The notes under the pieces are model-generated. The model had not been told where the DNA came from and made no database searches. It was given only the letters and a program-made list of their open reading frames with translations. From an uncultured virus (IMG/VR IMGVR_UViG_3300029305_009755) (Duplodnaviria > Heunggongvirae > Uroviricota > Caudoviricetes): a stretch of DNA of 64,000 bases. Of the stretch, positions 32,584 through 51,748 are shown one piece after another (position 1 is the first letter of the stretch; each line of letters begins with the position of its first letter). The stretch is from the IMG/VR virus record IMGVR_UViG_3300029305_009755. One strand, given 5' to 3'. Made by a program: the position numbers and the translations under genes.

Positions 32584-32745
32584 ATGGAACCCGATGTTAT
32601 CTACTTGGATATCCGCACATGTGGATAGATCTTGGATGAGTTCATGGCATGCGCTTGGTAGCTAGTGGAATGTAGGCCCGATGAGGAAATATTCCTTGAT
32701 GGGGACGAGTACGCGCTAGTCGGCAGATTCAGGCGCGCACACTAA
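32584..32745 (+). CDS. 53-aa protein with two in-frame TAG codons (putative pyrrolysine)
   Basis: GGAGGTGA RBS at 32572-32579; MEPDVIYLDIRTCG*ILDEFMACAW*LVECRPDEEIFLDGDEYALVGRFRRAH-TAA; TAG at 32626 and 32659. Confidence 0.65.
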
Positions 32746-32789
32746 ACACATTCTGAAAACGACTTAGACGACCTATAGAGGTGTAAAAG

Positions 32790-33068
32790 ATGACTTGGTT
32801 TTACATGGATAAGAAGATTGAAGAGGATGAGATTTACGACTTTATCGATGAGGTCGAAATGGACAGCGCACATTTCAACGAGTTCTTGGATGAAATGTGC
32901 GAGCCCGTCCGTATCGGCACATTCACATTCTACGCCGGCGACGTGCTGGAGAAGATGGATCCGATCGCATTCGAATGCGCACGCCAGGAAGAGGTCGACT
33001 ACATCGTCCGCGAGATAATCGACGATCCCGAATACGGCGAGCAGTACGGCATTTATTGGGAGGACTGA
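32790..33068 (+). CDS. Highly acidic small protein (DNA-mimic candidate)
   Basis: GAGGTG RBS; F.EFLDE...V.I......VL...DPIAF.C pattern; very D/E-rich. Confidence 0.7.
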   Translation: MTWFYMDKKIEEDEIYDFIDEVEMDSAHFNEFLDEMCEPVRIGTFTFYAGDVLEKMDPIAFECARQEEVDYIVREIIDDPEYGEQYGIYWED

Positions 33069-33139
33069 ACGCAGTCGCTCACCCGCCAAAACCCATTTTC
33101 AAAACCATTTAAAAAATCATAATAGAAGTGATTGAAATG
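33069..33139 (+). repeat. Intergenic cassette-boundary repeat, copy A
   Basis: GCAGTCGCTCACCCGCCAAAACCCATTTTCAAAACCATTTA...GTGATTGAAATGA, near-identical to 33641-33704. Confidence 0.8.
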
Positions 33140-33640
33140 ACAGGCAACAACTGTTTCAACAGGGCTCAGGCAATGAACACGGACGCACGTATCGAGGAGT
33201 TCGCAACCCTCGAATCCCGCATAAGAGCATTGAAAAAGGATATTGAGGGCATGGAAGCCATCAGAAACGACCTCGCCCGCGATATCTGCAAGGACCTCGG
33301 AAAAGATTCGTTCGCGGTCGAATGCGGAAACGGAATGAAGTACTCAGTATCGGTTAGGGATGTCGCCAAACACAACCTTAAGGAAGCTGAGGCCGAGTAC
33401 CCCGAGATAAAGAAGCTTGCAATCGAGAAGATTCAGGCTGAGCCCATCACCCAGACAATGGTCAACGCCCTTATCAAAGTCAAGACCACGGTTAAGAAGG
33501 CAGGCAAGACCGCGGAGAATTATGCCAGGGAAAAGGAAGCAGCCAAAGAATGGTTGGCAGATTTTAACTCAAAGGTGACGAACAGCATCGAAACAAACGT
33601 ATCTGTTCGTAAAATCGCCAAAACCATGGAGGATGAGTGA
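33137..33640 (+). CDS. Hypothetical coiled-coil protein
   Basis: ATG after GAAGTGA; Lys/Glu-rich. Confidence 0.7.
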   Translation: MTGNNCFNRAQAMNTDARIEEFATLESRIRALKKDIEGMEAIRNDLARDICKDLGKDSFAVECGNGMKYSVSVRDVAKHNLKEAEAEYPEIKKLAIEKIQAEPITQTMVNALIKVKTTVKKAGKTAENYAREKEAAKEWLADFNSKVTNSIETNVSVRKIAKTMEDE

Positions 33641-33704
33641 GCAATCGCTCACCCGCTCAAACCCATTTTTAAAACCATTTACGATTCAATAGGTGATTGA
33701 AATG
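33637..33704 (+). repeat. Intergenic cassette-boundary repeat, copy B
   Basis: GTGAGCAATCGCTCACCCGCTCAAACCCATTTTTAAAACCATTTA...GGTGATTGAAATGA. Confidence 0.8.
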
Positions 33705-33983
33705 ATGGATGCAAATGATTACTATCTGAGCCAGCACATGAACGCAATGTCCAGATACGACGACCGCCTGGACAACTACAGCAGGGTTCTCGATTATCCC
33801 TACAGGGCGGATGTCCTGGACGTCAAGAGGGAGGATATCGTCAAGGTCATGGACCTGTTCATGCATGATACCAGCTTCATCCCAAAGGCCTACCCCCAGA
33901 TACTGTTCTACGAGGACGGCGAGACCGTCGGGATGTACTGGGAGGGAACCATGGATGTCAACCTGTCCGACTATGTTGACTGA
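33702..33983 (+). CDS. Acidic hypothetical protein, possibly truncated by a premature TGA (frame open to 34031)
   Basis: After TGA the frame reads EYLEYRVSFEIMEAD-TGA, abutting the next ATG at 34032. Confidence 0.6.
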   Translation: MMDANDYYLSQHMNAMSRYDDRLDNYSRVLDYPYRADVLDVKREDIVKVMDLFMHDTSFIPKAYPQILFYEDGETVGMYWEGTMDVNLSDYVD

Positions 33984-34031
33984 GAGTATCTGGAATACAG
34001 AGTATCCTTCGAGATTATGGAGGCGGATTGA

Positions 34032-34442
34032 ATGGCATACACGCAGGCAGAATGGAACAAACTTGTATACGAACACCTCGTCCTCGACCTTGATGACGAT
34101 GAGGTCGGATTCGGAATCTGGCTACTGCCAGGGTTCGACCATTGCCGTCTATTGGTCACCCAGGTGATTGAAGAGGATGAGCCGTGGTCCGATGACCCCG
34201 ATGATGTCTACAGCATCAACTACACCATCGTCCTCGTGGACCATGGACTCAAGGACATCTTCGAAATGGAATCCGCCTGTTACAGGTGGGCGGACGGGGA
34301 CCTGTTCTCCCAGTGGCTCTACAACAACGGTATACCCGACCCCGAGGGATACATCGACCAGGAAACCTTCAAGAGGGGTACAGGAGTGGACCTGTTGGAC
34401 GCCCTGGATATGTTCAACTACTCCCTTCTTGAAAGGCACTGA
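34032..34442 (+). CDS. Acidic hypothetical protein
   Basis: GGAGG RBS; coding-like codon bias. Confidence 0.7.
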   Translation: MAYTQAEWNKLVYEHLVLDLDDDEVGFGIWLLPGFDHCRLLVTQVIEEDEPWSDDPDDVYSINYTIVLVDHGLKDIFEMESACYRWADGDLFSQWLYNNGIPDPEGYIDQETFKRGTGVDLLDALDMFNYSLLERH

Positions 34443-34484
34443 CCACAAACCACAAACAAACCCTTTAATCAATTCATAGGAGAA

Positions 34485-34898
34485 ATGAAAATGATGGATT
34501 TTTCTGTTTTCAGTAACGCAAAGCAAGTAACCGCAGCATACAGCAAGGGCCCCATGCTCAGGGCCTTCGGAAACGCAGCCGAAGAGGGTCACATCCCTTA
34601 CACGCTTTCATTCGGTCCCGAGGTCATCAGGGCCATCAAGCTCACTGATGCATACACGACCGCAGCATGGGGCGAGGACGCATTCAGTTTCCTGGATTAC
34701 AAGGCCAGGGACTACAACCTATTGTTGGCCTGCCTGTCCGAGTTCAACGGGGTCCTCGGATACGATGAGGTCTCGGAGCTCATCATCGGGGACCTGAAGG
34801 AGCTATCCTTCCCCGAAGGTCCCCTCATGGATCTCGGACTTCTCACCCTGGGAGCCATCAGGTTTTCCCAGGATGCATCCAAGGAGGTGAGGGAATGA
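34485..34898 (+). CDS. Hypothetical protein
   Basis: ATAGGAG RBS after A/C-rich spacer. Confidence 0.7.
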   Translation: MKMMDFSVFSNAKQVTAAYSKGPMLRAFGNAAEEGHIPYTLSFGPEVIRAIKLTDAYTTAAWGEDAFSFLDYKARDYNLLLACLSEFNGVLGYDEVSELIIGDLKELSFPEGPLMDLGLLTLGAIRFSQDASKEVRE

Positions 34899-35344
34899 AC
34901 ACGACAACGACACCCCAGACACTCCGCCAATTCCTGGCAGGGAATCCAAACAAGGACTATGACATGTGCGACACCGTCTACGATGTCATGGTCGGAGTAT
35001 GCGACATCGGGGAGCCCGATGACGTCTACGACGAGATGTGCAACGAACTCATGGACCGCCTCATGGTGGTCCGCACCAAGACCTACCACGATGGTTATTC
35101 AACCGTCACATGCGACATCGCGGGATTCGTGGAGGAGAACTACCACGCCGTGATGAGGCCATTCGGAAACGAGCACTCCGAGTTCGAGTTCCCCGAGGAT
35201 CCCACCGATGATTCCGATTGGGAATTCGATGAGGACGACCCCATCTACGTGGGAGTTCTCGTCATCATCGATCTCCTCATCGGGAACTACTCCGAGGAGT
35301 CGGCGAGGCATATGCTCCAGCTTCTCCGTGGGGAGGTGGAGTGA
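34895..35344 (+). CDS. Highly acidic hypothetical protein
   Basis: ATGA overlap, GGAGGTGA RBS. Confidence 0.7.
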   Translation: MNTTTTPQTLRQFLAGNPNKDYDMCDTVYDVMVGVCDIGEPDDVYDEMCNELMDRLMVVRTKTYHDGYSTVTCDIAGFVEENYHAVMRPFGNEHSEFEFPEDPTDDSDWEFDEDDPIYVGVLVIIDLLIGNYSEESARHMLQLLRGEVE

Positions 35345-35650
35345 ATGAAGGGAGTCCACGAGTTGGTACCCAACAGGTCGGAGTTCCCCCCGATCCACTG
35401 CCCTTTCTGTAAGAAGCCCCTCGTCTTCGAGGATCTCGTATCTGGTGAGGACTGGGGCTCTGGACGGCACAACGGCCGCCTCATCTTCTGGCTGGACTGG
35501 GAGGTGGCCTGTCCCGAATGCAAGGAGGAGTTCGAGATCGGCCTTCAGGCCGCGCCCACCACGATAGAGGTTCATTACTATGACAAGGAGGAAGACGATT
35601 CCATGTACATCGACTACGACATCCCCTCGGGCACCATGGAGGTGCAGTGA
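35345..35650 (+). CDS. Zn-ribbon protein
   Basis: CPFC...CPEC. Confidence 0.65.
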   Translation: MKGVHELVPNRSEFPPIHCPFCKKPLVFEDLVSGEDWGSGRHNGRLIFWLDWEVACPECKEEFEIGLQAAPTTIEVHYYDKEEDDSMYIDYDIPSGTMEVQ

Positions 35651-35854
35651 ATGATCATCCGTCCCATGTGCATCTTCTGCGGATGCTACAAGGATGTCGA
35701 GGTCACCGAGGAGCAGGCGGATTTGCTATTGCTCCCCCGCCCCCTGAGGCCCCCTGTCCAGGACATCCTGCCCGACCACGACGCCGGGATCAGGGAGCTG
35801 TTCATATCCCAGATGTGCCCCGATTGCTGGGACGACACATTCGGGGATGAATGA
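35651..35854 (+). CDS. Small Zn-binding protein
   Basis: CxxC...VQD.LP.....RELFIS..CPDCWD..F. Confidence 0.65.
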   Translation: MIIRPMCIFCGCYKDVEVTEEQADLLLLPRPLRPPVQDILPDHDAGIRELFISQMCPDCWDDTFGDE

Positions 35855-35907
35855 CACTCAAAACCTCAAACCAAACCATTTCCAGAATCAATATAGGATT
35901 GATAGAA

Positions 35908-36756: not shown

Positions 36757-36786
36757 GCAATCGCTCACCCGAAACCTTTTAAATAA
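36753..36786 (+). promoter_or_regulatory. Repeat copy C (GTGAGC-AATC-GCTCAC) followed by BRE/TATA (GAAACCTTTTAAATA)
   Basis: Same palindrome as copy B plus canonical archaeal promoter. Confidence 0.6.
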
Positions 36787-36838
36787 GTAACCAGATACAG
36801 GTTACAATAAACTTATTACGATACCATGGAGGTAAAAA

Positions 36839-37502: not shown

Positions 37503-38321
37503 ATGGCAAACATATGCAGTTTCTACGGACAGATCGTAACCAAGGACCCCGCCATCATCACGATGATCGATAGGATCCTGAAGGGAGAAGACCTCTTCAG
37601 ATGCTTCCACAGGGTCTACGAGGGCGATGTGATAGGCATCAGACAGGAAGGCGACCTCTACATCGGAACATTCAATGGCTGTTGTGCATGGTCGGCATAC
37701 CACCTGGACGAGGGGGACACGGACGGGGAGTTCATCGATGCCTGTATGCGCCACCGCGTCAGGATGGAGTGTGTCTCACTCAGGGGACTCCAGGAGATCT
37801 TCGACTTCGGATACTACCTCTACTACGAGGAAGAGGGATGCGAGTGCGTATGGGACTGTGCGAGGAACAACCTCGGCAAGAGGGTCTTCGAGAACTACCT
37901 ATACGACCAGAAGCCCGATGACTGGTATGATGAGGAGACCAACCCCTACTGCGATGCATTCGAGTACAGGACGACCCCCTATGAGATCTCCGACCTCTAC
38001 CTGGAGATCGAGGAAGAGGAGGATCTCTGGGACAACGATCCCCGCATGGGGACGATCTGCGTCCTCCCCAACGACAATCCCTACAAGCTGATGGAGATCT
38101 ACTCCGAGGAGTACGAGACGGAATCCACCTCCGAAGTCTGTCCCTACTGCGATGAGGAGGTGGAGATCCCGATCTACGGCGAGAGCTCCTGTCCAAACTG
38201 CGGGAAGGAGATCCTACCCTGCTCCATGTGTGCGAACATCTGCGGGGATATGATACTCCAGACCTGCCACTATCCGTGTCCTTATGACCTGTACCGCCCC
38301 CACAGGAGGTGCGAGGAATGA
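37503..38321 (+). CDS. Acidic hypothetical protein with C-terminal Cys cluster
   Basis: CPYC..E......CPNCG..I.PCS.C. Confidence 0.65.
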   Translation: MANICSFYGQIVTKDPAIITMIDRILKGEDLFRCFHRVYEGDVIGIRQEGDLYIGTFNGCCAWSAYHLDEGDTDGEFIDACMRHRVRMECVSLRGLQEIFDFGYYLYYEEEGCECVWDCARNNLGKRVFENYLYDQKPDDWYDEETNPYCDAFEYRTTPYEISDLYLEIEEEEDLWDNDPRMGTICVLPNDNPYKLMEIYSEEYETESTSEVCPYCDEEVEIPIYGESSCPNCGKEILPCSMCANICGDMILQTCHYPCPYDLYRPHRRCEE

Positions 38322-38659
38322 CCATGATGGTGGATGTCGATCTTAAGACCACCATATTCGTGCCCGAGGATTACTCCGGCAACATACTGGAATGGATCGA
38401 GGACACACTGGATTACAAGGACCTCATAGCCCTGCTGAGCGGTGCGGACTTCAACGAAAGGGAGTGCGACCACGCGCTGTGGAGCTTCATGAGGGGGAGC
38501 CCCAAGATCACCAGGGATCCCGACAACTCCAATCGCGTCACGATCAGACGCAAGGCCCGCTGTGATGACTGCGGAGCCATATTCTCATGGGATGAGGTCT
38601 GCGTGAGGGAATCCTGCAACATGGTCTTCACCGATGACGACGAGGAGGTGGATGAATGA
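38318..38659 (+). CDS. Hypothetical protein
   Basis: ATGA overlap, operon continuity. Confidence 0.6.
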   Translation: MTMMVDVDLKTTIFVPEDYSGNILEWIEDTLDYKDLIALLSGADFNERECDHALWSFMRGSPKITRDPDNSNRVTIRRKARCDDCGAIFSWDEVCVRESCNMVFTDDDEEVDE

Positions 38660-39443: not shown

Positions 39444-39881
39444 ATGATGGTCAGCGAAAACAATGTTGGAGCACAGTCTGTGAATGCAACCGATCTCGGA
39501 TGGAAGGGTCCCGGATTCTACACTAGGGGATCCCCGGATGAGCCCTGGGTGTTCAGGTTCGAGGACATCCTGTTGTCGGATGACCGCCACACGATCATTC
39601 CCCTGGTCAAGCAGGACGAACGTGTATGGGACATGATGGTCGTGATGGAGAAGCGCGAGCTGGACAACTGGCTCAGGAGCGGATGCGGTGTCGCGTACCT
39701 CGAAGATACCATGGAATCATTCCCCACCTTCCAGGATTTCATGGAGTGGGAGGTGTACAACACCATCCAACACACGATGATAGCCAACACCCCCTACGGC
39801 CCGAGCAGGAACGACCCTCTGGCCTGCTGGTGGAACAATCCTACGTCTATTGTCGACTTCGAAGAGGGGTTGATGGAATGA
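39444..39881 (+). CDS. Hypothetical protein
   Basis: ATAGGAG RBS. Confidence 0.65.
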   Translation: MMVSENNVGAQSVNATDLGWKGPGFYTRGSPDEPWVFRFEDILLSDDRHTIIPLVKQDERVWDMMVVMEKRELDNWLRSGCGVAYLEDTMESFPTFQDFMEWEVYNTIQHTMIANTPYGPSRNDPLACWWNNPTSIVDFEEGLME

Positions 39882-40075
39882 CTGTGGAATACAGATGCCC
39901 CGAGTGCGGGCACGTGTTCAAGCCCGGCTGGATCATGGATTGGGACTCCGTGGAGATCGGTGATGATGGCTGCTTCTACTACCAGTACTGCACCGTCGAC
40001 TGCGGCTGCGGCAGGACGCTGAGGTTCACCACGTTCTACGACGCCACCGAAGTGGATGTGGAGGTGGAGGAATGA
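39878..40075 (+). CDS. Zn-ribbon protein
   Basis: CPECG...C.CG. Confidence 0.6.
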   Translation: MTVEYRCPECGHVFKPGWIMDWDSVEIGDDGCFYYQYCTVDCGCGRTLRFTTFYDATEVDVEVEE

Positions 40076-40422
40076 AGAAGTACCGCCTGTGCGTGGACGA
40101 TCGCCTGTACGAGTTCTCATCCCTGGACGATCTCATCGAGGATCTGGACCCGAAGTACATCGACACCCTGTTCAGGGTCTGGATCCGCTACGTCCTATCG
40201 GACTTCGGGGTCCAGGGTCTGGTCGAGCGTGTGTTCCTGCACACGATCTCGGGCTACAACCTCTCGCCGGACTTCCTGGAGGCCTATGAGGCCATGTAGT
40301 GGGCAGCGGTCTATGATTTCATGGCCGACTCGTTCAACCTCTCCGACAGGAAGGGCCACGATGTGGTCTGGCTCGAGGACGGCTGCATGTTCTCGTTCAT
40401 GCTGACGGAGGTATCGGAATGA
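40072..40422 (+). CDS. 116-aa protein with in-frame TAG (putative pyrrolysine) at 40297
   Basis: Frame continues WAAVYDFMADSFNLSDRKGHDVVWLEDGCMFSFMLTEVSE to a TGA overlapping the next ATG (40419). Confidence 0.7.
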
Positions 40423-41624
40423 CCGACTACCTCGTCAGTCCGACAACTGCCGAAGGCAAGGCGCTCGAGAGGCGTGTCGTCAACATGGTGCAGTACATGC
40501 TGCCGGATGTCCCGCATCCGGTGGTGTTCGGGCAGGTCAGGGGGTTCATCGGGACCTACCTCCGGGAGCACCCGGAGATCTCCTCCCTCGAGCCGTTCGA
40601 GGCCGCGCAGACGGTCGCCGAGGCGTTCATGAGGGTCGACGGGCAATCGCTCGCCCGTTCCTACCCACTTCCCGATGATGCCCTCTTGCAGGCTTCTGAC
40701 GGGACGGACGACCTCGGGGAGACCGAGGGTACCTCCGAGGGTGCCGAAGCCCCGCCAGAGGCCGGGAAGGAGCCTCCATCGGGCGATGCGGGTTCCGGGG
40801 ACGGTGACAGACCGCCCGTGAGGGTGTCGTCCCGGATGCCGGACCATTGGATCCGCACGCCGGCCTACGACCGCCTGGTGTCCGCGCTGCTGCAGGGCCG
40901 GGACGTGGTCCTGGTGGGGGAGAGGGGCCTCGGCAAGTCCGAGATGGCCGTCCATGCCTGCCGGGAGATCTACGGCTGCCTGCCGCAGGTGTGCACGTCG
41001 CCGCAGGTGAGGTCGGACGTGTCCGGATACCCCACCGCGGACGGGGACTACGTCCCCTCCGAGGTGACGCGCGACATCGAGCGTGCGGGCATGGTGCTGA
41101 TGGAGGAGCTGGACAGGTCCACGCCGCGTGCGTCTGTCTACCTCAACCCCATACTCGCCAACCGTCTCGCCACCATCCCCGGCAGGGGTACCGTTGCCGT
41201 CCATCCCCTGCGCAGGTTCGTCGCCACGATGAACACGATCGGGCAGGGGTCCGATCCCTCCTACTCGTCCGCCGTCCGCCAGGACTCGGCCCTCCTCGAC
41301 AGGTTCGCCGTGATCAAGGTGGAGTGGGACGACATGATCGCGCTCTCATGCGCACGTGATAGTCCGTGGCCGTACGATCTGGTCGCGTTCTCCCGTGCAT
41401 GGAACGCCGCGGCCGACAACATGGCCCGCCCCGATCTCAGGGTGTCCTACCGCAGCATCTCCGGTTTCACCGGCAGCTACCTGGAGGACGGCCCCGCGGC
41501 TGCGTTCGACAGCTGGTTCGTCCGCTTCGCCGATCCCGGCACCGTGGAGGCCCTCGCACGCTCCATCAAGGAGGGCGGGGTCGTGCTGTCCATGTTCCGC
41601 GTACACGCGGGAGTGATGCCATGA
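40419..41624 (+). CDS. MoxR/CbbQ/CobS-like AAA+ ATPase
   Basis: GERGLGKS Walker A, LMEELD Walker B, ATMNT.G.G, D.ALLDRF. Confidence 0.85.
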   Translation: MTDYLVSPTTAEGKALERRVVNMVQYMLPDVPHPVVFGQVRGFIGTYLREHPEISSLEPFEAAQTVAEAFMRVDGQSLARSYPLPDDALLQASDGTDDLGETEGTSEGAEAPPEAGKEPPSGDAGSGDGDRPPVRVSSRMPDHWIRTPAYDRLVSALLQGRDVVLVGERGLGKSEMAVHACREIYGCLPQVCTSPQVRSDVSGYPTADGDYVPSEVTRDIERAGMVLMEELDRSTPRASVYLNPILANRLATIPGRGTVAVHPLRRFVATMNTIGQGSDPSYSSAVRQDSALLDRFAVIKVEWDDMIALSCARDSPWPYDLVAFSRAWNAAADNMARPDLRVSYRSISGFTGSYLEDGPAAAFDSWFVRFADPGTVEALARSIKEGGVVLSMFRVHAGVMP

Positions 41625-42436
41625 TCCGCCGCGGATCGTGGACGCCGCCGTCCGGTGCCCCGGTGGACTGGATCATGGTCGACCTGCTGCCCTGGGACAG
41701 GTTCCTCGAGGGGGTGATCACCAGGGCGGGCGTGTACGCGCTGCCCTCCTATGCGAACAGCATAGAGGAGTGGGGCGTCATGTACCGCACCGGGGTCGAT
41801 CCCGGAGATCTGCCGCTGGCCGACGTGCCCCGGGATCTCAGGTCCTCCGGCTTCGTGCCCGGGGACACGGACCTCGATGTCACGGGGTCCTCGGTGGACA
41901 TCGGGGAGTATCTCCATCGTTCCCCCGAGTGCATGGTCTCGGAGGAGGTCCCGCCCATGGATCTCCCGCTCACGCGCATAGTCGTGGACACGGGCGTGTC
42001 CGTGATGATCAGCGCACAGACGCTGCGCATGTGTGCGGAGGGTATCGCGAGGGCGTGCAGGTCATTGGAGGCCCTTGGAAGGGCCGTGGCGGTCGATACG
42101 GTGGACGTGACGTATGTGAGACCCACCGAGGTGGTCACGTGCCTCCACGTGCCCGTGAAGGGCCCTGACGGGCCGATCGACCTCCGGAGGATGATCTGGG
42201 CCTGCGGACATCCCAACTTCAACAGGGACACCGTGTTCGCGTACCTCGCATCCCTGCACGGCATGGGGAGGAACTGGCTGACCGCCGAGAAGGGTCTCGG
42301 CGTCGGCATGGTGCACCCGTTCCTCCGCAGCATCGTGGGAGGGTCGCCCGTGATCATCACAATGGAGTCGCTCGCGGCGGCATCCGCGGACCCCGCATCG
42401 ATGGTCCTGATGGCCTGCATGGGGGATGCCGCATGA
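41621..42436 (+). CDS. Degenerate vWA-like partner of the AAA ATPase
   Basis: D.DVTG..VDI..YL...PECM then beta-strand-D and LEA.G..V; adjacent to AAA gene. Confidence 0.55.
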   Translation: MIRRGSWTPPSGAPVDWIMVDLLPWDRFLEGVITRAGVYALPSYANSIEEWGVMYRTGVDPGDLPLADVPRDLRSSGFVPGDTDLDVTGSSVDIGEYLHRSPECMVSEEVPPMDLPLTRIVVDTGVSVMISAQTLRMCAEGIARACRSLEALGRAVAVDTVDVTYVRPTEVVTCLHVPVKGPDGPIDLRRMIWACGHPNFNRDTVFAYLASLHGMGRNWLTAEKGLGVGMVHPFLRSIVGGSPVIITMESLAAASADPASMVLMACMGDAA

Positions 42437-43930: not shown

Positions 43931-44707
43931 ATGACTATCTGGTACACAGGACAGCACGAGGAGGCCGTCGGACAGACGCCCGGCGACCTCCCCCCGGACT
44001 GGTGGATGGGCTGGACGCCCTCCATGATATCGACCACACCGAGGCAGGACCTCCTGTTCCTCCGCGCATGGGCGCAGGGGGACTGGAGGACGATCAACAA
44101 CATGGACCGCTCGTACCTGTTCGACAGGGGCATCTCCCCGTCGAAGGGCGCGGCGGTCCCGGGCACCGACCCGTCGCGCGGGTTCATCCCTCCGATCGGC
44201 CTGGCGGGAGGGCTGCTCTCGGGCCCGCGCCCCCAGCCCGTCTCGGAGCTGTCGGAGTCTCCCGCTCCGGCCCCTGCCGGACCCCGGCTCCCGTCCGACC
44301 TCCGTCCCATCGGACGCACGGTCTTCACGGGACTGCCGGGAGGCGTGAGGGCGTGGCTGGTGTCGCAGGACAGGTGCGGGGTGATCCACATCGCGCTGGA
44401 CGTGACATCGCTGAGGCTGATCCTCGGGACGGACCACCCGGAGATCGCCGACGCTCGCATCGGATCGACCGACGTCATGGTGATGTCGCCGGGGTCGGGG
44501 CGTGCAGCGGTCATGGCACGCGACGGGTCCGTCGTGGGCCGTGCCCCGTCCCTGGTCATCGCGGTCAGGGACGGCAGGACCGTCGACATGCCCGCGGGCC
44601 TGGTGGACGACGCGGTGTCCCTGGTCCTCGACCCGAAGACCGGGCTGGGCTGGGTGCTCACCGTGGACCTCCCGGACAGGGACAGGGATGAAGACGGGGA
44701 GGACTGA
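43931..44707 (+). CDS. Hypothetical protein
   Basis: TTATATA promoter and AGGTGA RBS before ATG 43931. Confidence 0.65.
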   Translation: MTIWYTGQHEEAVGQTPGDLPPDWWMGWTPSMISTTPRQDLLFLRAWAQGDWRTINNMDRSYLFDRGISPSKGAAVPGTDPSRGFIPPIGLAGGLLSGPRPQPVSELSESPAPAPAGPRLPSDLRPIGRTVFTGLPGGVRAWLVSQDRCGVIHIALDVTSLRLILGTDHPEIADARIGSTDVMVMSPGSGRAAVMARDGSVVGRAPSLVIAVRDGRTVDMPAGLVDDAVSLVLDPKTGLGWVLTVDLPDRDRDEDGED

Positions 44708-44711
44708 TCGC

Positions 44712-44942
44712 ATGGCGCTGGGGATGAACGACGCGACTCTGCTCATGCAGATGAGGGCCGACCTGGCGACGGTCAACTCCAACCTGGCCCGTGCCCTGGA
44801 CAGGCTGGACGCGCTGGTCGACGGCGTGGACGACCTGGTGGGCATGGTGTACGTGGCCCTGTGCCTGGAGCACCCGGGGTTCCCTGAGAGGCTCGCCGAG
44901 CTGAGGGACGCGGTGGGGAGGGAGCATGACCGGAAGCCATGA
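44712..44942 (+). CDS. Small coiled-coil protein
   Basis: GGAGG RBS. Confidence 0.55.
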   Translation: MALGMNDATLLMQMRADLATVNSNLARALDRLDALVDGVDDLVGMVYVALCLEHPGFPERLAELRDAVGREHDRKP

Positions 44943-45165
44943 CCATGACCGGAGGAGGATGCGCTGTCCGAGATGCGGGCGCGTACCCGAGATGGTCAGG
45001 TCGGCCAGGGGCGTCTGGATCGCCAGATGCTCCAACAGGGCGTGCTCGTACCAGGGGATGCGTGCCGAGGGACGCACGACCGACGATGCCTGGGAGGCAT
45101 GGGAGGGCGTGGTGTTCGACGGCGAGTACCACGGGTACAGGTACGACGAGAGGACGGATGGATGA
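44926..45165 (+). CDS. Lar-like Zn-ribbon protein
   Basis: CP.CG..P....C....C......A..AW. Confidence 0.55.
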   Translation: MTGSHDHDRRRMRCPRCGRVPEMVRSARGVWIARCSNRACSYQGMRAEGRTTDDAWEAWEGVVFDGEYHGYRYDERTDG

Positions 45166-45491
45166 ACAGGAGAAGGAATGAAGGAATGGACAAGGAGATG
45201 GAAGGAATGGATGCAGAGGATCTGATGGAGATGATGGAGCACCTGGCAGGCGGATGCACGGTCAGGTGCGGGAACAGCACGGTCAGGTACGATGAATACA
45301 AAGGGTGGCTGCTGGTCGACACCGACGGAGTGGAGATCCCGATGACCAAGCTGCTGGTCGACCTGACCGGCGGATGGGAGTGCGTGGCCGAGGGCGACGG
45401 ATGGTTCGACGACCCCGACTGCGAGTGGGGCGACAGACGCTACGGATGCGGGGGCGTCTGCACCCTCGAATACAGGGAGGGACCCCTGTGA
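45162..45491 (+). CDS. Hypothetical protein
   Basis: ATGA overlap. Confidence 0.55.
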   Translation: MNRRRNEGMDKEMEGMDAEDLMEMMEHLAGGCTVRCGNSTVRYDEYKGWLLVDTDGVEIPMTKLLVDLTGGWECVAEGDGWFDDPDCEWGDRRYGCGGVCTLEYREGPL

Positions 45492-45808
45492 GGCCGGGTC
45501 TCGAGGGCAGGCAGATGTACGCCATCGTGCCGGGCACACCCGAGTGGACCCTGATGTCCAAGCTCGTGCTGGACAAGGCCGACGAGGTCCCCGAGGGCGA
45601 GTTCTGGGACCCGACGGGGGACGCGGTGGTCCTCAGGACGGCGGACGGCTGGAGGATGAAGTGCTGGTGGTCGGACTGGGAGTGGGTCGACGTGGTCCCC
45701 AGGGACATCGGCGAGATCATGGGCGTCCTGAACCGCAGGGAGATCGAGGTGCACCACAGCGAGGAGCAGCAGCTGATCGTCTACACGGCCTACGGCGAGC
45801 CGGAGTGA
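45488..45808 (+). CDS. Hypothetical protein
   Basis: GTGA overlap. Confidence 0.55.
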   Translation: MRPGLEGRQMYAIVPGTPEWTLMSKLVLDKADEVPEGEFWDPTGDAVVLRTADGWRMKCWWSDWEWVDVVPRDIGEIMGVLNRREIEVHHSEEQQLIVYTAYGEPE

Positions 45809-45812
45809 TCGC

Positions 45813-46187
45813 ATGGCCGGGAAGACTAAGGCCAAGACGGTGCAGGCGGACGACCCGGCGTGGTGGTCATGGGAGATGGTGGAGGACCTGATCATGGACA
45901 GGGTCGCATGGGAGATCCTCCACTGGGTGAAGAGCAACCCCGGGTCGAACATCTCCAAGATGATCGAGTCCTCGGACTCGACCATCCCGGCCAACAGGGC
46001 CTACAACAAGACCAGGGAGATGGAGAGGGCCGGACTGCTCGTCGGCGAACCGGGGGCGGACTGGAGGAAGAACAGGACCCTGCGCATCACGCCCCGCGGG
46101 GAGACCATCCATGGGGTGATGATGCTGGCCCTGGTGGAGGTCAGGGCGATGCTGGACATAAGGGAGCCCCTGGTGAGGTGGAGATGA
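45813..46187 (+). CDS. Winged-HTH (MarR/ArsR-like) regulator
   Basis: IL..V..NPG.....ME.AGL........L.IT.RG. Confidence 0.65.
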   Translation: MAGKTKAKTVQADDPAWWSWEMVEDLIMDRVAWEILHWVKSNPGSNISKMIESSDSTIPANRAYNKTREMERAGLLVGEPGADWRKNRTLRITPRGETIHGVMMLALVEVRAMLDIREPLVRWR

Positions 46188-46396: not shown

Positions 46397-46566
46397 TGTC
46401 GGACTGCTGGTACTGCGGCAATGACCTGTGCTGGGATTCCGACTTCAACCTCGACGAGGTGACCGGCGACCCAGAGGATGTGGGCATCGCGACGTTCCTG
46501 CACTACCCCGTGTGCGGTGCGGAGGTGCAGTACATGCTGCGTGAGGACAGGGAGGGAGACCTATGA
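46396..46566 (+). CDS. Small Zn-ribbon protein (third Cys apparently replaced by Tyr)
   Basis: CWYCG..L.WD.DF......GI...LHYP.CGA. Confidence 0.55.
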   Translation: MSDCWYCGNDLCWDSDFNLDEVTGDPEDVGIATFLHYPVCGAEVQYMLREDREGDL

Positions 46567-46833
46567 CGGTGCACAGGCCCCTGTCGGAACTGGACAGGTC
46601 GATACTCGCCTACCTGCAGAAGCACGGTCCCAGTTCCACTGCCGAGATGCGTGCGGCAGGACTTGCGTTGGAGCACGGCACGATGCGCCGTCTCCACGAC
46701 GACGGGTTCGTGACCGACCCTCCTTATGAGTTCAAGACGACCAAGGGCCGCGGAGCGTTCGGCAAACGTGAAGAGGGCGGAGGTGTCCGTCCGCCCCGAC
46801 CTGCGCAACGAGCGCGCGTGGAGGCTGGTGTGA
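46563..46833 (+). pseudogene. Small wHTH gene interrupted by a 58-nt insertion (46714-46771)
   Basis: Removing the CGTGA-flanked 58 nt gives a 70-aa protein ending GFVKRAEVSVRPDLRNERAWRLV-TGA, like paralogs at 55751 and 55957. Confidence 0.75.
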
Positions 46834-47467
46834 TGAAAGAGAACATTGAGATTCGCGAACAAGACGTACTGGAGTTGCTCAGATCCCTCCCTGACGGATC
46901 GGTGGACCTGATGACCATAGGGAGTACCATGGAGAGCTTACTCCCATATCCTGTGGAGTGCAGACAGAGGTGCTTGATGAGATGTACCGCGTGATGAAGG
47001 TGCCCAACATCTACATCTGGTGCAACAAGGCGCAGATTCCACAATATCTGGAGTATTTCATCAGCAGAGGATGTAGCTTCGACATCTTGACATGGCACAA
47101 GACCAACCCCACCCCGACCTGTAACAACAAGTATCTGTCAGATACCGAGTACTGTCTGTATTTCCGCAAGGGCGCACAGCTTTACGGTACGTATGAGACG
47201 AAGCGTAAATACTGGGTCTCATCGGTGAACAGGAGTGACAAGAAAAGATTCGGTCATCCCACATGCAAACCTCTGGACATCATATCGATGCTGGTAACCA
47301 ATTCAACCAAGGAAGGGGAGCTGGTATGCGATCCATACATGGGGTCGGGCACGACTGCAGTAGCCTGTAAGATCAATGGCAGAAGATTCATCGGAGGGGA
47401 CATCTCAAGAGAGTATGTCGATACTGCGATGAAGAGAGTGAAAGAGATAATCGGAGAGGTGGAATGA
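46833..47467 (+). pseudogene. N4/N6 (beta-class) DNA methyltransferase frameshifted by displacement of its 58-nt DPPY block
   Basis: N-terminus D.LE.L..LPD.SVDL, then frame change to W.K.NP, HPT.KP, V.DPY.GSGTT; the DPPY block lies at 46709-46771. Confidence 0.8.
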
Positions 47468-47634
47468 TGGACAGGAGATGTGTGGATGTGGACGGCGTGA
47501 CATGGTTCGTGTCGAGCTGCATGGGATGTCCGCTGAAGCGCGGGATGAAATGCGGGATGACGGGGAGGATATACCCGACAACCGTTCCCCTGCCGGGCTG
47601 GTGCCCGCTGGAGAGGATGCAGGGGTGGGAGTGA
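47464..47634 (+). CDS. Small Cys protein, CxxCP...PxWCPL family (56 aa, not in ORF track)
   Basis: MMDRRCVDVDGVTWFVSSCMGCPLKRGMKCGMTGRIYPTTVPLPGWCPLERMQGWE; overlaps both neighbours. Confidence 0.65.
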   Translation: MMDRRCVDVDGVTWFVSSCMGCPLKRGMKCGMTGRIYPTTVPLPGWCPLERMQGWE

Positions 47635-48020
47635 TGCATGACAAACGCGAGTACATATGGCTGCCACAGAGCACGAGCACGTGGCAACGTCCGATGACAC
47701 AGAGCACGTCCATGGACATCCCCATCAAGGCGCTCGGTGCACTGTTCGAGACGAAGCTGGAAGAGAATCTGAGAGACGAGGTGAACAAGGTGATGGATGA
47801 AGCGAGCAAGGACAAGGCGATGCCGGCATCGGTCGTGTACCATGAGTGTGCGGACGAGCTGAGATGGCTGGTGAACAGCCTGGACAAGGCGATGGATTGT
47901 CTGGTCTCAGGCGATATGATCGCAGGAGGCGTCAGGCTCCAGAGGGTGCTGGACAAGATGCAGGAGACCGAGAGGAAGTGGTGGGCGATGGCCGAGAAGA
48001 CGGAGGGAACGGATGAGTGA
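47634..48020 (+). CDS. Hypothetical helical protein
   Basis: TGATG overlap. Confidence 0.6.
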   Translation: MHDKREYIWLPQSTSTWQRPMTQSTSMDIPIKALGALFETKLEENLRDEVNKVMDEASKDKAMPASVVYHECADELRWLVNSLDKAMDCLVSGDMIAGGVRLQRVLDKMQETERKWWAMAEKTEGTDE

Positions 48021-48339
48021 CGCCGAGCAGTTCGTCATGTTCCATAAGATCATGGAGCTGAGGGAGACAGTGGTGGAAGTCGGTTGGCTCGACATGCCCA
48101 CCGCAGTGATTATCTCCGTGGTGCTGGCAGTGCTGGTACACCTGGTGATAGGGGCCTGGTACTGGCGCAGACACTGGGATGACACAGAGATGCTGTCCTT
48201 TGCCCGTGCGCTGTCCGTGACGCTCGCCATAATCTTCGTGGTCCTCGCCTTTCTCATCCAGGTCGACGTCTGGGAGTACGAGACACTGTGCGAAACATAC
48301 CGCGCCCTGTACGGACCGCTACCTTGGGAGGTGGCGTGA
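48013..48339 (+). CDS. Two-TM membrane protein
   Basis: Two hydrophobic segments. Confidence 0.6.
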   Translation: MSDAEQFVMFHKIMELRETVVEVGWLDMPTAVIISVVLAVLVHLVIGAWYWRRHWDDTEMLSFARALSVTLAIIFVVLAFLIQVDVWEYETLCETYRALYGPLPWEVA

Positions 48340-48563
48340 TGCCTCCCGTGATGCCCGTGCCCCCACCCACCCTTATCACCGGTGGGGACGGAGGAGGTAT
48401 CGTGGTGAGCGGGCCGTGGGCTATCGTGATATTGGCATGCATCATAATCCTGTTCATCCTGATCGGGATAATGTCATACGATGTGTTCCGTGATTACTGG
48501 GTTATGTGCAAGCATGAGAGGAAGATGAAGAAAAAGATCAAGGAGAGGAGGAAGAGAGAATGA
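48339..48563 (+). CDS. Single-TM membrane protein
   Basis: Hydrophobic helix plus basic tail. Confidence 0.55.
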   Translation: MPPVMPVPPPTLITGGDGGGIVVSGPWAIVILACIIILFILIGIMSYDVFRDYWVMCKHERKMKKKIKERRKRE

Positions 48564-48871
48564 CAGAGTATGCGGTCGAGATCGTTCTGGTGCGTGAATC
48601 AGGACCTGTAAGAATCAATGCCCCCCTTCCCGACACATGGTTCGAGTGTCTCGTCATACCCTGCGAGAGCAAGGAGGGGATGGTGGACCTGCATTATGCC
48701 CTGCTGGAAAGATTCAGAATGCTCATGGAGCGTGGCATCATGGAGATGCACATCGATCAGCTTCAAATGGACGTGAACACGAAGGACATCAAAGCGATCT
48801 GGATTGCAGTGGATGGATAGAAGATACCCCACAGGGTGTTGCCCGGATGGAGGGTGGAGTATGAGTGGTGA
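48560..48871 (+). CDS. 103-aa protein with in-frame TAG (putative pyrrolysine) at 48818
   Basis: Frame continues KIPHRVLPGWRVEYEW to a TGA overlapping the next start (48861). Confidence 0.6.
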
Positions 48872-49175
48872 CATCGACCCCAAGAGGCTGAGGCTGACCG
48901 AGGCGGGGAGGAAGCTGCTGGACACGGGCATCAAGGACTGTCCGTTCTGCAAGAAGCAGCCTCGGGTGGACCTCCAGGTGAGGACAGGGAGATACTGCAT
49001 AAGATGTAACGACCTGGTGGAACGTTCCCTCACCGACTGTGTTGGCATGGACACGTGCGACTGGACTCTGGAGAGGGCTGTGAGGAGATGGAACCGCAAG
49101 GTGGACAGGATAAACAAGAGGACTGAGGAGAAGAACAGGAAGGAGGATGGATGGAGATGGGTGAGGATAAAGTGA
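48861..49175 (+). CDS. Lar-like restriction alleviation family protein
   Basis: IK.CPFC...C..C....A...WNR. Confidence 0.6.
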   Translation: MSGDIDPKRLRLTEAGRKLLDTGIKDCPFCKKQPRVDLQVRTGRYCIRCNDLVERSLTDCVGMDTCDWTLERAVRRWNRKVDRINKRTEEKNRKEDGWRWVRIK

Positions 49176-49333
49176 TGGAACCGAAACCGTGCCCGCTCTG
49201 CGGACAGGAGATAAGGGTCGTGGATTGCGATGGTGTGTACTACGACTTCTGGTGCTTCAACTGCCTGCTATCCATGCAGGCGGACACATACGAGGAGGGA
49301 TTGGAGAGATGGAACAGGAGGGTGGATGAATGA
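49175..49333 (+). CDS. Lar-like restriction alleviation family protein
   Basis: KPCP.CG...C..C......WNRRV. Confidence 0.65.
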   Translation: MEPKPCPLCGQEIRVVDCDGVYYDFWCFNCLLSMQADTYEEGLERWNRRVDE

Positions 49334-49503
49334 GTTGGATCGTATATGAGACGAAGAACAGGGAAGTCATCATGGATGAAACGGGATTCGTCTTCATAAA
49401 AGACAAAAGGGACCCACCCTGCATGGTACTCGGCACGGGCTGGGACCAGGTGAAGCACCAGCTGGAGAGGGAGGAGTGGCTGATCAAGGAGGGTTGGCTA
49501 TAA
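49330..49503 (+). CDS. 57-aa hypothetical protein (not in ORF track)
   Basis: MSWIVYETKNREV...; fills gap with ATGA overlap. Confidence 0.55.
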   Translation: MSWIVYETKNREVIMDETGFVFIKDKRDPPCMVLGTGWDQVKHQLEREEWLIKEGWL

Positions 49504-49691
49504 TCAAACTTAGGACCTGTCCCTTCTGCGGAGGGAAAGGTGAACTCGAGATTTCAAACCCTTGGGACCCTTATGAGGCACACGTCAGATGCGCGAAGTG
49601 TGGAATCGAGGGACCCCACGTATGGAGGGTGAATGATGAGGAGTTCAAGACGACAGCCATAAGGTTATGGAACAGGAGAGTGAAGGGATGA
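49494..49691 (+). CDS. Lar-like restriction alleviation family protein
   Basis: LRTCPFCGG....V.C..CG..GP....AI..WNRRV. Confidence 0.7.
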   Translation: MAIIKLRTCPFCGGKGELEISNPWDPYEAHVRCAKCGIEGPHVWRVNDEEFKTTAIRLWNRRVKG

Positions 49692-50245
49692 ATGAGACAG
49701 TTCGGGATGACCCGTTCATGCAGGCTATCAGAGAATGCATGCAGCATGCGTATGAAAAAGAAATGAAGAGGAGTGAGAAGATGGTTAGAGTAGATGAGAT
49801 GTGCAGATGCGACGTGAGGAAGAGGATGGACTTGGGAATGATTCCACCTATCCCCCTCCTTCTGGATGGATTCATCAAGGTATGTCCTTGGTGCGACAGG
49901 ACCAATCCCTCTTGGGCGAAGAAGCAGAGAGCAGAGGAGAAGAAGGGGACGATGACCAAGAAGGAGATGATGATGAAGCTCGAGGAGGCGATCAACCCCA
50001 TGGCGAGATCCGGCAAGAACTTCGCAGTATCCGTGGTGGGACTCGAGAAGAAGGCAGAGGATCCCAAGCCCCAGCCCAAGAGGAAGGTCTGGGTGGTCGT
50101 CAGGATACTCAGAGGGCTGGAAGGTACCAGCGACATCTGCGTGTTCGACACCAGGGAGAAGGCGGAGGACTTCCGCCGTGCCCTGTCCATGGCCGACACC
50201 TACGACTGCGTCACGAGGATGTACGAGAGAGAGGTCATCGAATGA
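49688..50245 (+). CDS. Hypothetical protein
   Basis: C-terminal VWVV......I.VF.T.EKAE domain. Confidence 0.55.
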   Translation: MNETVRDDPFMQAIRECMQHAYEKEMKRSEKMVRVDEMCRCDVRKRMDLGMIPPIPLLLDGFIKVCPWCDRTNPSWAKKQRAEEKKGTMTKKEMMMKLEEAINPMARSGKNFAVSVVGLEKKAEDPKPQPKRKVWVVVRILRGLEGTSDICVFDTREKAEDFRRALSMADTYDCVTRMYEREVIE

Positions 50246-50619
50246 ATGCAAAAGAGTGCCTACAGGCACTGCTGGATGGCAAGACCCTCAAAGATAGAGA
50301 TGACAGATATTGGAGGATGAGCGATGAGGGAGAGTTGCAGGTGAAATGGGAGATGAAAGATGATTGGATCTGTTCGGAAGCCGTATGGAATGGCGATTGT
50401 GTGATCCATGAAGAGTACACCCTCACATTCAAGGACGCCTTGAAAGCCATGATCGATGGCAAGGCCGTGGAAAGTGATGTTTCCAAGCGCAAATACCATC
50501 TCATGAACGTATATGGATATCATGAAACGTTTGTCGAAGTGGGCGACGAATTCTGTACAACGATCCTCACAGAGATCAAACTCTCCGAACAGATCGGCAA
50601 GTGGAAGGTGGTAGAGTGA
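50242..50619 (+). CDS. Tandem Tad2/DUF2829-like domain protein
   Basis: ECLQALLDGKTL... and LTFKDALKAMIDGKAV...WKVVE. Confidence 0.55.
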   Translation: MNAKECLQALLDGKTLKDRDDRYWRMSDEGELQVKWEMKDDWICSEAVWNGDCVIHEEYTLTFKDALKAMIDGKAVESDVSKRKYHLMNVYGYHETFVEVGDEFCTTILTEIKLSEQIGKWKVVE

Positions 50620-50975
50620 CCCTGACTGCTAAGGAGGCTATGCAGGCATTGCTGGACGGTAAGACGCTCCGCAAGGACGGGGTCGTCATAACCCCTGCAA
50701 GGTGGGGATTGTTGATGAAGTTCAATAACGGCACCTGTGAGAGGATCACACTGGAAGGCTGCAAGGTCGTCGAGGAATACCCTCTGACCTTCGAGCAGGC
50801 ACTCAGGGAGATGCTTGACGGTAGAATCATGATGTGTGGGACGAGTGAGAGGTATGCATACAGGTTCCGTAACGGGGTGTTCGAAAGCTCCTGTCAGGAT
50901 GATGAATTCACCAGATGGGAAAGATGTGCGATATTCGTACCCATGCAGGGATCCAAATGGAAGGTGGTCGAATGA
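50616..50975 (+). CDS. Tandem Tad2/DUF2829-like domain protein
   Basis: EAMQALLDGKTL... and LTFEQALREMLDG...WKVVE. Confidence 0.55.
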   Translation: MTLTAKEAMQALLDGKTLRKDGVVITPARWGLLMKFNNGTCERITLEGCKVVEEYPLTFEQALREMLDGRIMMCGTSERYAYRFRNGVFESSCQDDEFTRWERCAIFVPMQGSKWKVVE

Positions 50976-51211
50976 CCGATATCGAGACTAACTCTGAGTG
51001 GCACAGAATCAAGAACGCACACAAGAGACTCAGCAAACTCATAGATGATTTGGATGAGGGATGGGACTGGTTGTCCGAATGCGATGAGGATGATCCGATG
51101 ATGGAGCATGCAGTCAAGCTACGGAAGACCGCTGACGTCCTACGCACTCTGTACACTCCTTTGGCGGTGACTATCAAGAGTATCGAATCCAAATGGAAGG
51201 TGGACGAATGA
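50972..51211 (+). CDS. Hypothetical helical protein ending in the shared KWKVDE tail
   Basis: ATGA overlap. Confidence 0.6.
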   Translation: MTDIETNSEWHRIKNAHKRLSKLIDDLDEGWDWLSECDEDDPMMEHAVKLRKTADVLRTLYTPLAVTIKSIESKWKVDE

Positions 51212-51393
51212 GGTTCATAGAGATTGATGGAAAGAGGTACGAGGTATCCGAATGCTTTAGATGCCCCTGCATGGCTGTGGGGGGAGGCGGATGGGCAACC
51301 CGTTGCAGACACCCGGAAGCATCCAGTGACAAGGAGGACTACTTCGGTGAGGAGGTTCCCGACTGGTGCCCGTTGAGGGAAGTGGTTGTATGA
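51208..51393 (+). CDS. Small Cys protein, CxxCP...PDWCPL family
   Basis: IEIDG.RY.V..C..CPC......C.HP.....PDWCPL. Confidence 0.65.
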   Translation: MRFIEIDGKRYEVSECFRCPCMAVGGGGWATRCRHPEASSDKEDYFGEEVPDWCPLREVVV

Positions 51394-51581
51394 GATACAT
51401 AGAGATCGATGGAGAGAGGTACAAGGTACGGTATTGTTACGATTGTCCCTGTGTGGACAGCGGAGACGATGGATGGGGGGCCTGTTGCAGGCATCCTAAA
51501 GTATCCCTGTACAACAGCGCTGTCGATTACTTCGGTAATGGGGTTCCGGACTGGTGTCCGTTGAGGGAGGTGATTGAGTGA
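51390..51581 (+). CDS. Small Cys protein, tandem paralog of 51208-51393
   Basis: Near-identical motifs and shared DNA stretches. Confidence 0.65.
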   Translation: MRYIEIDGERYKVRYCYDCPCVDSGDDGWGACCRHPKVSLYNSAVDYFGNGVPDWCPLREVIE

Positions 51582-51748
51582 AGATCTAGCTCTGCTGTTT
51601 TCATGGTGACTGGTATGGGGTGGAAAGTGAGTATCGGCGTGACGCGGAATTCGAGGATGCCGAGGAAGCGATCCGCTACATGGCAGAGATGTATCGTCCG
51701 GATGGATCCGTAGGATGGTACATGTACCAAGTGTGGGTGGAAGAATGA
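51578..51748 (+). CDS. 56-aa protein with in-frame TAG (putative pyrrolysine) at codon 4 (51587)
   Basis: GGAGGTGA RBS, GTGA overlap; MKI*LCCFHGDWYGVESEYRRDAEFEDAEEAIRYMAEMYRPDGSVGWYMYQVWVEE; stop overlaps next ATG 51745. Confidence 0.7.

Follow-up and report, generated by a model that had tools for sequence, protein, structure and literature searches.

Five in-frame TAG codons in four small genes of an uncultured virus of the Caudoviricetes (IMG/VR record IMGVR_UViG_3300029305_009755) find their closest described counterparts in archaea that translate TAG as pyrrolysine (Pyl). Kivenson et al. define Genetic Code 34, in which every TAG stands for Pyl, and the genera they regard as recoded include Methanomethylophilus, Methanogranum, and Methanoplasma; of the 15 predicted Pyl proteins found to be expressed in M. 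alvi, their proteomic data showed Pyl at TAG in 12, and no other residue (bioRxiv 10.1101/2024.09.30.615893). For "Candidatus (Ca.) M. alvus", Borrel et al. reported in 2014 that 1.6% of stops are TAG and predicted 16 non-methyltransferase Pyl proteins, and in their argument an amber codon newly arising in frame would persist as a stable mutation in this organism (PMC4153887). In Methanosarcina acetivorans, where host tRNA-Pyl is set against the release factor at UAG, TAG gives rise to both a truncated and a read-through protein, in-frame TAGs in non-methyltransferase genes can yield full-length protein, and readthrough has been modelled as Pyl supply over demand (PMC12626013). These descriptions concern cellular genomes. 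The words virus, viral, and provirus are absent from the main text of the Code 34 preprint (bioRxiv 10.1101/2024.09.30.615893), a virus is not mentioned in the parts of the M. acetivorans article cited here (PMC12626013), and a full-text literature search, covering main texts, found no paper on a virus that reads TAG as Pyl.

The window analyzed here, that is, the whole 64,000-nucleotide stretch of the viral record, resembles the Code 34 archaea (Methanomethylophilus alvi, Methanococcoides burtonii, and others) in that TAG is likewise not a gene end, that rare internal TAGs occur in conserved proteins, and that all other sense codons are much more frequent than TAG. It differs from these systems, which are cells, in belonging to a virus without Pyl machinery in the 77.6 kb examined. 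In the reading that we consider likely, the virus is written in the code of its host and relies on host tRNA-Pyl. That TAG does not serve as a gene end in the window, and that coding runs on past it, is supported by the observations described below. We infer ribosomal read-through, Pyl as the inserted residue, and a Code 34 host from sequence comparisons, with the identity of the residue following from the host family alone. The TAG codons lie in four open reading frames (ORFs; lengths in amino acids, aa):

32584..32745, plus strand: 53-aa ORF with two TAG codons, at 32626-32628 (codon 15, TAG1) and 32659-32661 (codon 26, TAG2), ending in TAA
40072..40422, plus strand: 116-aa ORF with TAG at 40297-40299 (codon 76); its TGA shares the bases ATGA with ATG 40419 of an AAA_5 ATPase gene
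48560..48871, plus strand: 103-aa ORF with TAG at 48818-48820 (codon 87); its TGA lies 11 bases into the next gene (start 48861)
51578..51748, plus strand: 56-aa ORF with a GTG start and TAG at 51587-51589 (codon 4), the weakest of the four

Gene ends and TAG codons in the viral window

The five TAGs were named in an original prediction, made from the letters of this stretch, that an archaeal virus reads TAG as a sense codon; all of them (32626, 32659, 40297, 48818, and 51587) were confirmed on the sequence in the expected frames. They are real alleles. Two IMG/VR loci from other samples (L001 and L002) match window positions 47570-58868 with 0 and 1 mismatches and carry TAG at both 48818 and 51587, and contigs of metagenome run X4 cover 32400-34936, 39600-40680, and 50986-51944 with 0 differences. 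Each TAG is therefore found unchanged in independent assemblies, which rules out assembly error as their source.

Genes were called with a codon-usage score trained on 20 long ORFs, from which non-overlapping ORFs were picked by score. Under the standard code, this procedure yielded 98 genes, ending in TGA (84), TAA (12), or TAG (2); with TAG read through, it yielded 99 genes, 86 ending in TGA and 13 in TAA. The sole two TAG-ended genes, 40072-40299 and 48560-48820, both remain open past the TAG up to an in-frame TGA overlapping the start of the following gene, so that the earlier statement that credible genes end in TGA or TAA applies directly to 96 of the 98 and, after extension, to the other two. 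The TAG triplet is not scarce as such: on the coding strand it makes up 11.5% (155/1347) of off-frame stop triplets, and against this share, at most two TAG ends among 98 genes have a probability of 6e-4 and none among 96 a probability of 8e-6. Record G001, a 30-kb piece of this virus in which 5432 shared bases are identical and positions 39800-41000 are missing, extends 13.6 kb past the right end of the window and adds 10 genes. None of these ends in TAG, and with 2 of 98 such ends in the window and 0 of 10 beyond it, TAG is not the common true stop elsewhere in the genome that would have spoken against the prediction. As an observation apart, the same record holds a sixth candidate at 75169-75300 (in window-extended coordinates), a plus-strand ORF of 43 aa that scores weakly (9.6) and contains a single in-frame TAG.

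The read-through frames also fit the packing of the operon. As originally noted, three of the four genes end at a TGA overlapping the next start: the TGA at 40422 overlaps ATG 40419, that at 48871 overlaps the start at 48861, and that at 51748 overlaps the start at 51733. The 53-aa ORF ends in its TAA (32745) 45 bases ahead of the next start.

The census has to be weighed against a simple alternative, the main rival to host-code decoding, in which the host still terminates at TAG but seldom uses it, the four ORFs represent accessory genes that can be dispensed with and carry nonsense alleles giving truncated products or none, and the missing TAG gene ends just reflect host codon bias. At the TAG-stop rate of 1.6% given for "Ca. 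M. alvus", 0-2 TAG ends in 98 genes are expected anyway, and the census therefore indicates a host-like bias and not, by itself, read-through. Moreover, TAG accounts for 55% of one-step nonsense opportunities and is thus the commonest such outcome, so that finding TAG at 5 of 5 interruptions (P = 0.05-0.07) is a weak argument. Both points weigh against host-code decoding, and we nevertheless regard the nonsense-allele account as unlikely for reasons that come from the genes themselves, as described in the next section.

Only 5 of 18,881 codons are in-frame TAGs, all within the four ORFs of 53-116 aa. Genes in this size range hold 19% of the codons, so that the placement of all four TAG ORFs among them has P = 0.0014; no gene longer than 116 aa, structural genes included, contains a TAG, in agreement with the earlier claim that the large structural and replication genes are free of it. 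The restriction to genes of at most 116 aa fits weak constraint in accessory genes, and a simpler account of why only accessory genes are affected would be that the bulky Pyl residue is tolerated only at weakly constrained sites.

Calling the genes again with TAG as a sense codon, as had been proposed, extended both TAG-ended genes; it raised coding coverage merely from 88.4% to 89.0%. A shift of 0.6 points is invisible to tests that look for a gain in coding density, such as that of a 2026 survey in which none of 3708 archaeal viral genomes was reported to have an alternative code, the threshold for genomes <100 kb being a density gain of >10% (PMC13465236). With so small a change, standard pipelines truncate or miss the TAG genes, and the stumps of two of them are in the public protein collection as standard-code calls: a 75-aa product (P0006) on 19 contigs and an 86-aa product (P0015) on 12 contigs.

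Translation starts were examined by taking as site strength the longest match to the ribosome-binding consensus within 20 bases upstream of an ATG, GTG, or TTG. The TAG ORFs starting at 32584, 40072, 48560, and 51578 score 8, 7, 6, and 9 bases, respectively, whereas matches of at least 8 bases precede just 16 of the 6648 such triplets in the window. The 53-aa ORF has GGAGGTGA at 32572-32579, 4 bases ahead of ATG 32584; GGAGGTG stands 5 bases ahead of the start at 40072 and AGGAGG 8 bases ahead of that at 48560; and GGAGGTGAT at 51566-51574, one of two 9-base matches in the window, lies 3 bases ahead of GTG 51578. The exact 8-mer GGAGGTGA occurs in four copies, all on the plus strand and each 4 bases before a start (32584, 34895, 51578, and 55751). 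Its count is not above chance (shuffled sequences average 5), and it is the placement that is informative. With TAG as a stop, two of the strongest sites in the genome would be spent on peptides of 14 and 3 residues, an outcome that disfavors the nonsense-allele account.

Conservation across the TAG codons

Homologues reach across the TAG in three of the four genes. For the 116-aa gene, a search of 5.8 billion proteins returned four cluster representatives, each of 116 aa, and the clusters comprise 11 full-length forms (70-88% identical) in addition to the 75-aa stump of the window. The column aligned with the TAG at 40297 holds arginine in 10 of the 11 full-length homologues and glutamine in one. 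The 40 residues past it are conserved, with a run of 17 columns that is invariant except for one A/V change. An AlphaFold model of the protein (12 sequences; predicted local distance difference test score, pLDDT, 89.9; predicted template modelling score, pTM, 0.83) places the TAG within the helix formed by residues 68-94, which is followed by two strands (98-113).

The cluster of the 103-aa gene likewise contains 11 full-length forms, of 103-109 aa and 86-90% identity, one of which comes from a metagenome-assembled genome (MAG) labelled "Candidatus Methanomethylophilaceae archaeon". All 11 have lysine in the column of the TAG at 48818, and the 16 residues past it are conserved. Two 86-aa forms in the same cluster, that of the window and P0022, which differs from it at 4 of 86 residues, both end at the TAG site.

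Several features of these two genes weigh against host-code decoding and are what nonsense alleles would lead one to expect. None of the aligned full-length homologues, those of the 53-aa ORF below included, has TAG at the respective column, which marks the TAG alleles as derived and potentially nonsense alleles. Both genes are dispensable in relatives from metagenome runs that diverge ~5-10% from the window (X8, X10, and X11): X11 lacks 48565-48868, and X8 has a different sequence at 39867-40439. Divergence from the closest homologues is also slightly higher past the TAG than before it, at 6-8 of 40 versus 6-8 of 75 residues in the 116-aa gene and 2-4 of 16 versus 6-10 of 86 in the 103-aa gene, numbers that are in both cases too small to weigh.

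The 53-aa ORF carries two TAGs. A search of 1.84 billion representative proteins returned 28 matches to its frame at E<=0.001, many of them 50-60 aa long and covering residues 1-52 at 40-57% identity. Sixteen of the matches were aligned, three long multi-domain proteins and nine of 92-158 aa being left out. Among these 16 homologues, the TAG1 column (codon 15) contains leucine in 11, methionine in 2, and phenylalanine, valine, and isoleucine in 1 each; the TAG2 column (codon 26) contains arginine in 8, lysine in 3, and tryptophan, isoleucine, serine, valine, and aspartate once each. The strongest motif of the family sits past both TAGs, and the window retains all 7 of its invariant or nearly invariant residues. 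With a hidden Markov model (HMM) built without the window sequence, the stretch past TAG2 scores 41.9 bits, compared with 19.8 bits for the stretch preceding TAG1; shuffled versions of the post-TAG2 stretch reach at most 3.7 bits (157 of 200 shuffles scored).

The same gene is difficult to reconcile with decay. Past TAG1, a stop is produced by only 13 of 333 possible single-base changes in the ORF, so that under drift ~25 other changes would be expected to accompany a second nonsense codon; these are not seen, and apart from its two TAGs the gene is undamaged. In a structure model (26 sequences, pLDDT 93.7), the protein adopts a beta-alpha-beta-beta domain, of which the 14-residue product of a stop at TAG1 would comprise just the first strand. 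In both structure models, which are confident, each TAG precedes or lies within a helix and is followed by strands of the same domain, so that the predicted folds need the post-TAG parts. Among the changes listed in the relatives from runs X8, X10, and X11, the 53-aa ORF shows four synonymous substitutions, I16T, and R31K. With at least four synonymous changes beside these two replacements, the frame is coding in the relatives, a result that says nothing on whether TAG is retained there. The family is encoded at five other viral loci, none of which has an internal TAG.

A longer, 112-aa version of this gene, starting at ATG 32407, was rejected because it has no homologue, contains a 1-base deletion at 32448 in X8, and is at odds with a ribosome-binding site that precedes 32584. 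Separately, the 53-aa family was also seen as 7 matched stretches inside single long proteins (P0090, 373 aa; P0101, 428 aa), and is therefore a repeatable small domain.

The 56-aa ORF stands apart from the other three. Its GTG at 51578 overlaps the TGA of the upstream ORF, while the TGA that ends it reaches into the start at 51733; its coding score is low (0.18 per codon), and it has no homologue in phage records, the collection to which that search was limited, the latter point counting against host-code decoding. The 9-base Shine-Dalgarno match and the gene packing are the evidence for TAG 51587 as a sense codon, and they suggest it weakly.

Taken across the set, the original expectation of coding-like continuation past each TAG is borne out by homologues spanning four of the five codons and lacks homologue evidence at 51587. 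The accompanying expectation that both sides would be conserved, with K, Q, or R at the site, holds in part: four of five TAGs have conserved flanks, with columns of K (48818), R/Q (40297), and R/K (TAG2), whereas the TAG1 column is mostly leucine and 51587 has none. In the scheme used for the Code 34 archaea, Category 1 comprises genes with an internal TAG, >30% identity to known proteins on both sides, and an extension of >15 aa, and Category 4 comprises those in which TAG read-through gives an out-of-frame overlap of >60 nt (bioRxiv 10.1101/2024.09.30.615893). Three genes fall into Category 1, namely 32584-32745 (40-57%), 40072-40422 (41-aa extension), and 48560-48871 (17-aa extension). No Category 4 case was found, as read-through overlaps the next gene by 4, 11, or 16 nt or stops 45 nt short of it.

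These properties are what sets the nonsense-allele account back. None of the four TAG ORFs contains a frameshift or a TGA or TAA interruption, and the extended frames stop exactly where the homologues end and preserve the overlap packing; the two-TAG gene keeps its post-TAG motif intact; and the TAG alleles are found on the 19 and 12 contigs noted above as well as in the second, diverged form P0022. Searches directed at DNA of diverged relatives, for a measure of selection past the TAGs, gave no viral-contig loci for the AAA_5 neighbor or the TAG-gene alignment A4, and no loci for alignment A3 in genome contigs, for A4 in metagenome contigs, or for a 20-base pattern; against viral contigs, alignment A3 found only two copies, identical to the window. 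The TAG genes had no megablast or tblastn match in the phage collection, none of the four ORFs matched a Pfam or PHROGs family, and Foldseek searches of the PDB with the 53-aa and 116-aa models returned no match at E <= 0.001.

Proposed decoding by the host and its alternatives

The host of the virus bears directly on how TAG would be read. The window is viral: a Pfam and PHROGs scan of its proteins identified tail, tail-fibre, and tape-measure genes, and the element is a tailed virus that encodes a major head protein:

61690..63000, minus strand: major head protein gene (phrog_24667, E 3.5e-8)

Metagenome runs containing window sequence derive from animal faeces and gut. When 50,697 phage records were searched, the best relative proved to be Caudoviricetes sp. 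vir335 (BK063680.1), whose VapE protein is 41% identical (E 1e-92) and whose record states Methanomassiliicoccales as host; the matches that follow it have E values of 1e-15 to 1e-21. Of 11 protein clusters (90% identity) that were looked up, the three named members all come from "Candidatus Methanomethylophilaceae archaeon" MAGs, in two locus-tag series. The window is thus probably most of the genome of a Caudoviricetes virus infecting a gut methanogen of the family Methanomethylophilaceae, in line with the archaeal virus that had been predicted. That the host is deduced from MAG labels and from a relative at 41% identity is a further point to be held against the preferred reading.

Together, the window and the extension provided by the 30-kb record amount to 77.6 kb, and the longest contig on record encoding proteins of this virus has 81,639 bases. 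No tRNA was found in the window with ARAGORN and Rfam or in the next 13.6 kb with ARAGORN, so that the earlier remark that no tRNA was seen now extends over 77.6 kb; no Pyl enzyme was matched by Pfam among 99 scanned window proteins. With no suppressor tRNA in this span, a virus that reads TAG as sense would depend on host pylT, pylS, and pylBCD.

In the proposed mechanism, the five viral UAGs would be read by the CUA anticodon of host tRNA-Pyl, to which PylRS attaches the Pyl that PylBCD synthesizes. With TAG read as Pyl, TGA and TAA would be the only gene ends, and viral genes would terminate at UGA or UAA alone. The TAGs would be recent single-base derivatives at tolerant positions, from AAG at 48818 and from CAG at 40297, where one relative has glutamine, and the four accessory genes would still be translated to full length. 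Three of the TAGs fall in columns of K/R type, in keeping with insertion of a lysine derivative. Most of the tests proposed with the original Pyl reading thus had the outcome it predicts; its weaker parts are the support for 51587 and the identity of the residue, which follows from the host family.

A different reassignment, in which a suppressor tRNA encoded by the virus gives TAG to a standard amino acid such as glutamine, is known from phages of gut bacteria. Recoded phages have many in-frame stops, with TAGs in late or structural genes, and often bring their own suppressor tRNA. Among the reassignments described for them are TAG to Gln and TGA to Trp (bioRxiv 10.1101/2021.08.26.457843). 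As in the virus considered here, a standard stop must be read as sense for whole genes to be made; unlike in those phages, the code here would match that of the host, and there are only five TAGs, none in a structural gene, and no tRNA. The single glutamine at the 40297 column and the ~4 kb of the roughly 81.6-kb genome that lie outside the 77.6 kb are compatible with a suppressor of this kind. None of the features typical of code 15 was found, however, when density gain (88.4% to 89.0%), suppressor tRNA, and TAGs in structural genes were tested, and the residues at the TAG sites are mainly K/R or L rather than Q, which makes a viral suppressor tRNA highly improbable.

Decoding by host tRNA-Pyl could also be ambiguous, giving short and full-length products in a ratio set by host Pyl supply and demand and thereby coupling the virus to methylamine metabolism, as in the sensor suggested with the original prediction. 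Such behavior has its precedent in M. acetivorans, where both products are made in a supply-dependent manner (PMC12626013), and it would accord with the location of all TAGs in small accessory genes of the plus-strand block. M. acetivorans belongs to another order. For the likely host family, reading of TAG as Pyl throughout is reported, and no other outcome was detected in M. alvi (bioRxiv 10.1101/2024.09.30.615893), which renders the sensor idea less likely. In addition, TAG alleles are rare among the homologues, unlike what is expected of a selected regulatory device, and no conserved RNA element was detected (0 Rfam matches). We therefore consider ambiguous decoding improbable. A related and equally doubtful possibility is that the TAGs form a Pyl-dependent gate, with two in the first gene of the early operon and one in each of three others, full products requiring ample charged tRNA-Pyl. 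Such a gate would tie the viral program to the methylamine and Pyl state of the host and lock the virus to Pyl-decoding hosts.

The distant relative vir335 offers a comparison at the level of whole genomes. It shares with the window genes for phrog_17057, RecE/YqaJ-like, Erf-like, ParB, dUTPase, and thymidylate synthase proteins; it has no DNA match to the window and no homologue of the TAG-bearing genes, and it is annotated with the standard code. Its 107 annotated coding sequences (CDS) end in TGA (95), TAA (9), or TAG (3), so that TAG ends are scarce there as in the window. One of the three, CDS 65865-66137 of BK063680.1, would upon read-through extend by >300 codons in a frame other than that of the genes behind it. 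This observation speaks against host-code decoding, in that some related viruses may still use TAG as a gene end, unless the CDS is miscalled.

If the virus does use the code of its host, it would be the first shown in the archaeal code in which TAG is pyrrolysine, and its proteins would be the first viral ones predicted to contain pyrrolysine. The code mismatch would then act as a host-range barrier, as the four proteins would be cut short outside Pyl-decoding hosts. More generally, missing TAG gene ends combined with internal TAGs in conserved genes may be a signal for host prediction among viruses of Code 34 methanogens.

Accessory genes and compositional features

Genes in positions 1-32000 of the window lie mainly on the minus strand, and those from 32584 to ~61600 are small, densely packed, and on the plus strand, the 53-aa ORF opening the block. 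Besides the structural genes, the Pfam and PHROGs scan matched a VapE-like primase-helicase, an SNF2 helicase, a YqaJ/RecE-like exonuclease, an Erf-like annealing protein, and ParB, as well as ThyX, dUTPase, a DNA methylase, two Tad2-like proteins, and three Lar-like proteins.

The N6/N4 DNA methylase appears to be split within 46563-47467. Its Pfam match (profile positions 33-221) begins at residue 3 of ORF 46958-47467, which is overlapped from upstream by ORF 46563-46994 in a different frame, and most of the region is missing from the relatives in runs X8 (joint 46835>47480) and X11 (joint 46398>47470). A likely anti-defence cluster comprises the Lar-like restriction-alleviation ORFs 48861-49172, 49151-49330, and 49476-49688 and the tandem Tad2-like (Thoeris anti-defence) ORFs 54912-55166 and 55151-55387. 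The presence of Lar-like and Tad2-like genes is unusual in an archaeal virus.

Base composition varies along the window. An island of low GC content at 2860-4047 (0.47 in a 2-kb bin versus ~0.55 in flanking bins) includes the plus-strand ORF 3178-4047, whose third-position GC of 0.37, compared with 0.6-0.8 in its neighbors, may mark a recently acquired gene. Stretches of high GC content, 0.66-0.67 versus 0.50-0.57 around them, are found at 40000-42000 and 44000-46000 and contain AAA_5 and DUF7192 genes along with small ORFs. Within an otherwise conserved block, 38000-38650 behaves as a variable module: ~640-650 bases are skipped in X8 and X10, and ~300 are replaced in X11. Accordingly, members of the cluster of a 272-aa protein encoded at 37503-38318 occur in both 170-aa and 272-aa forms.

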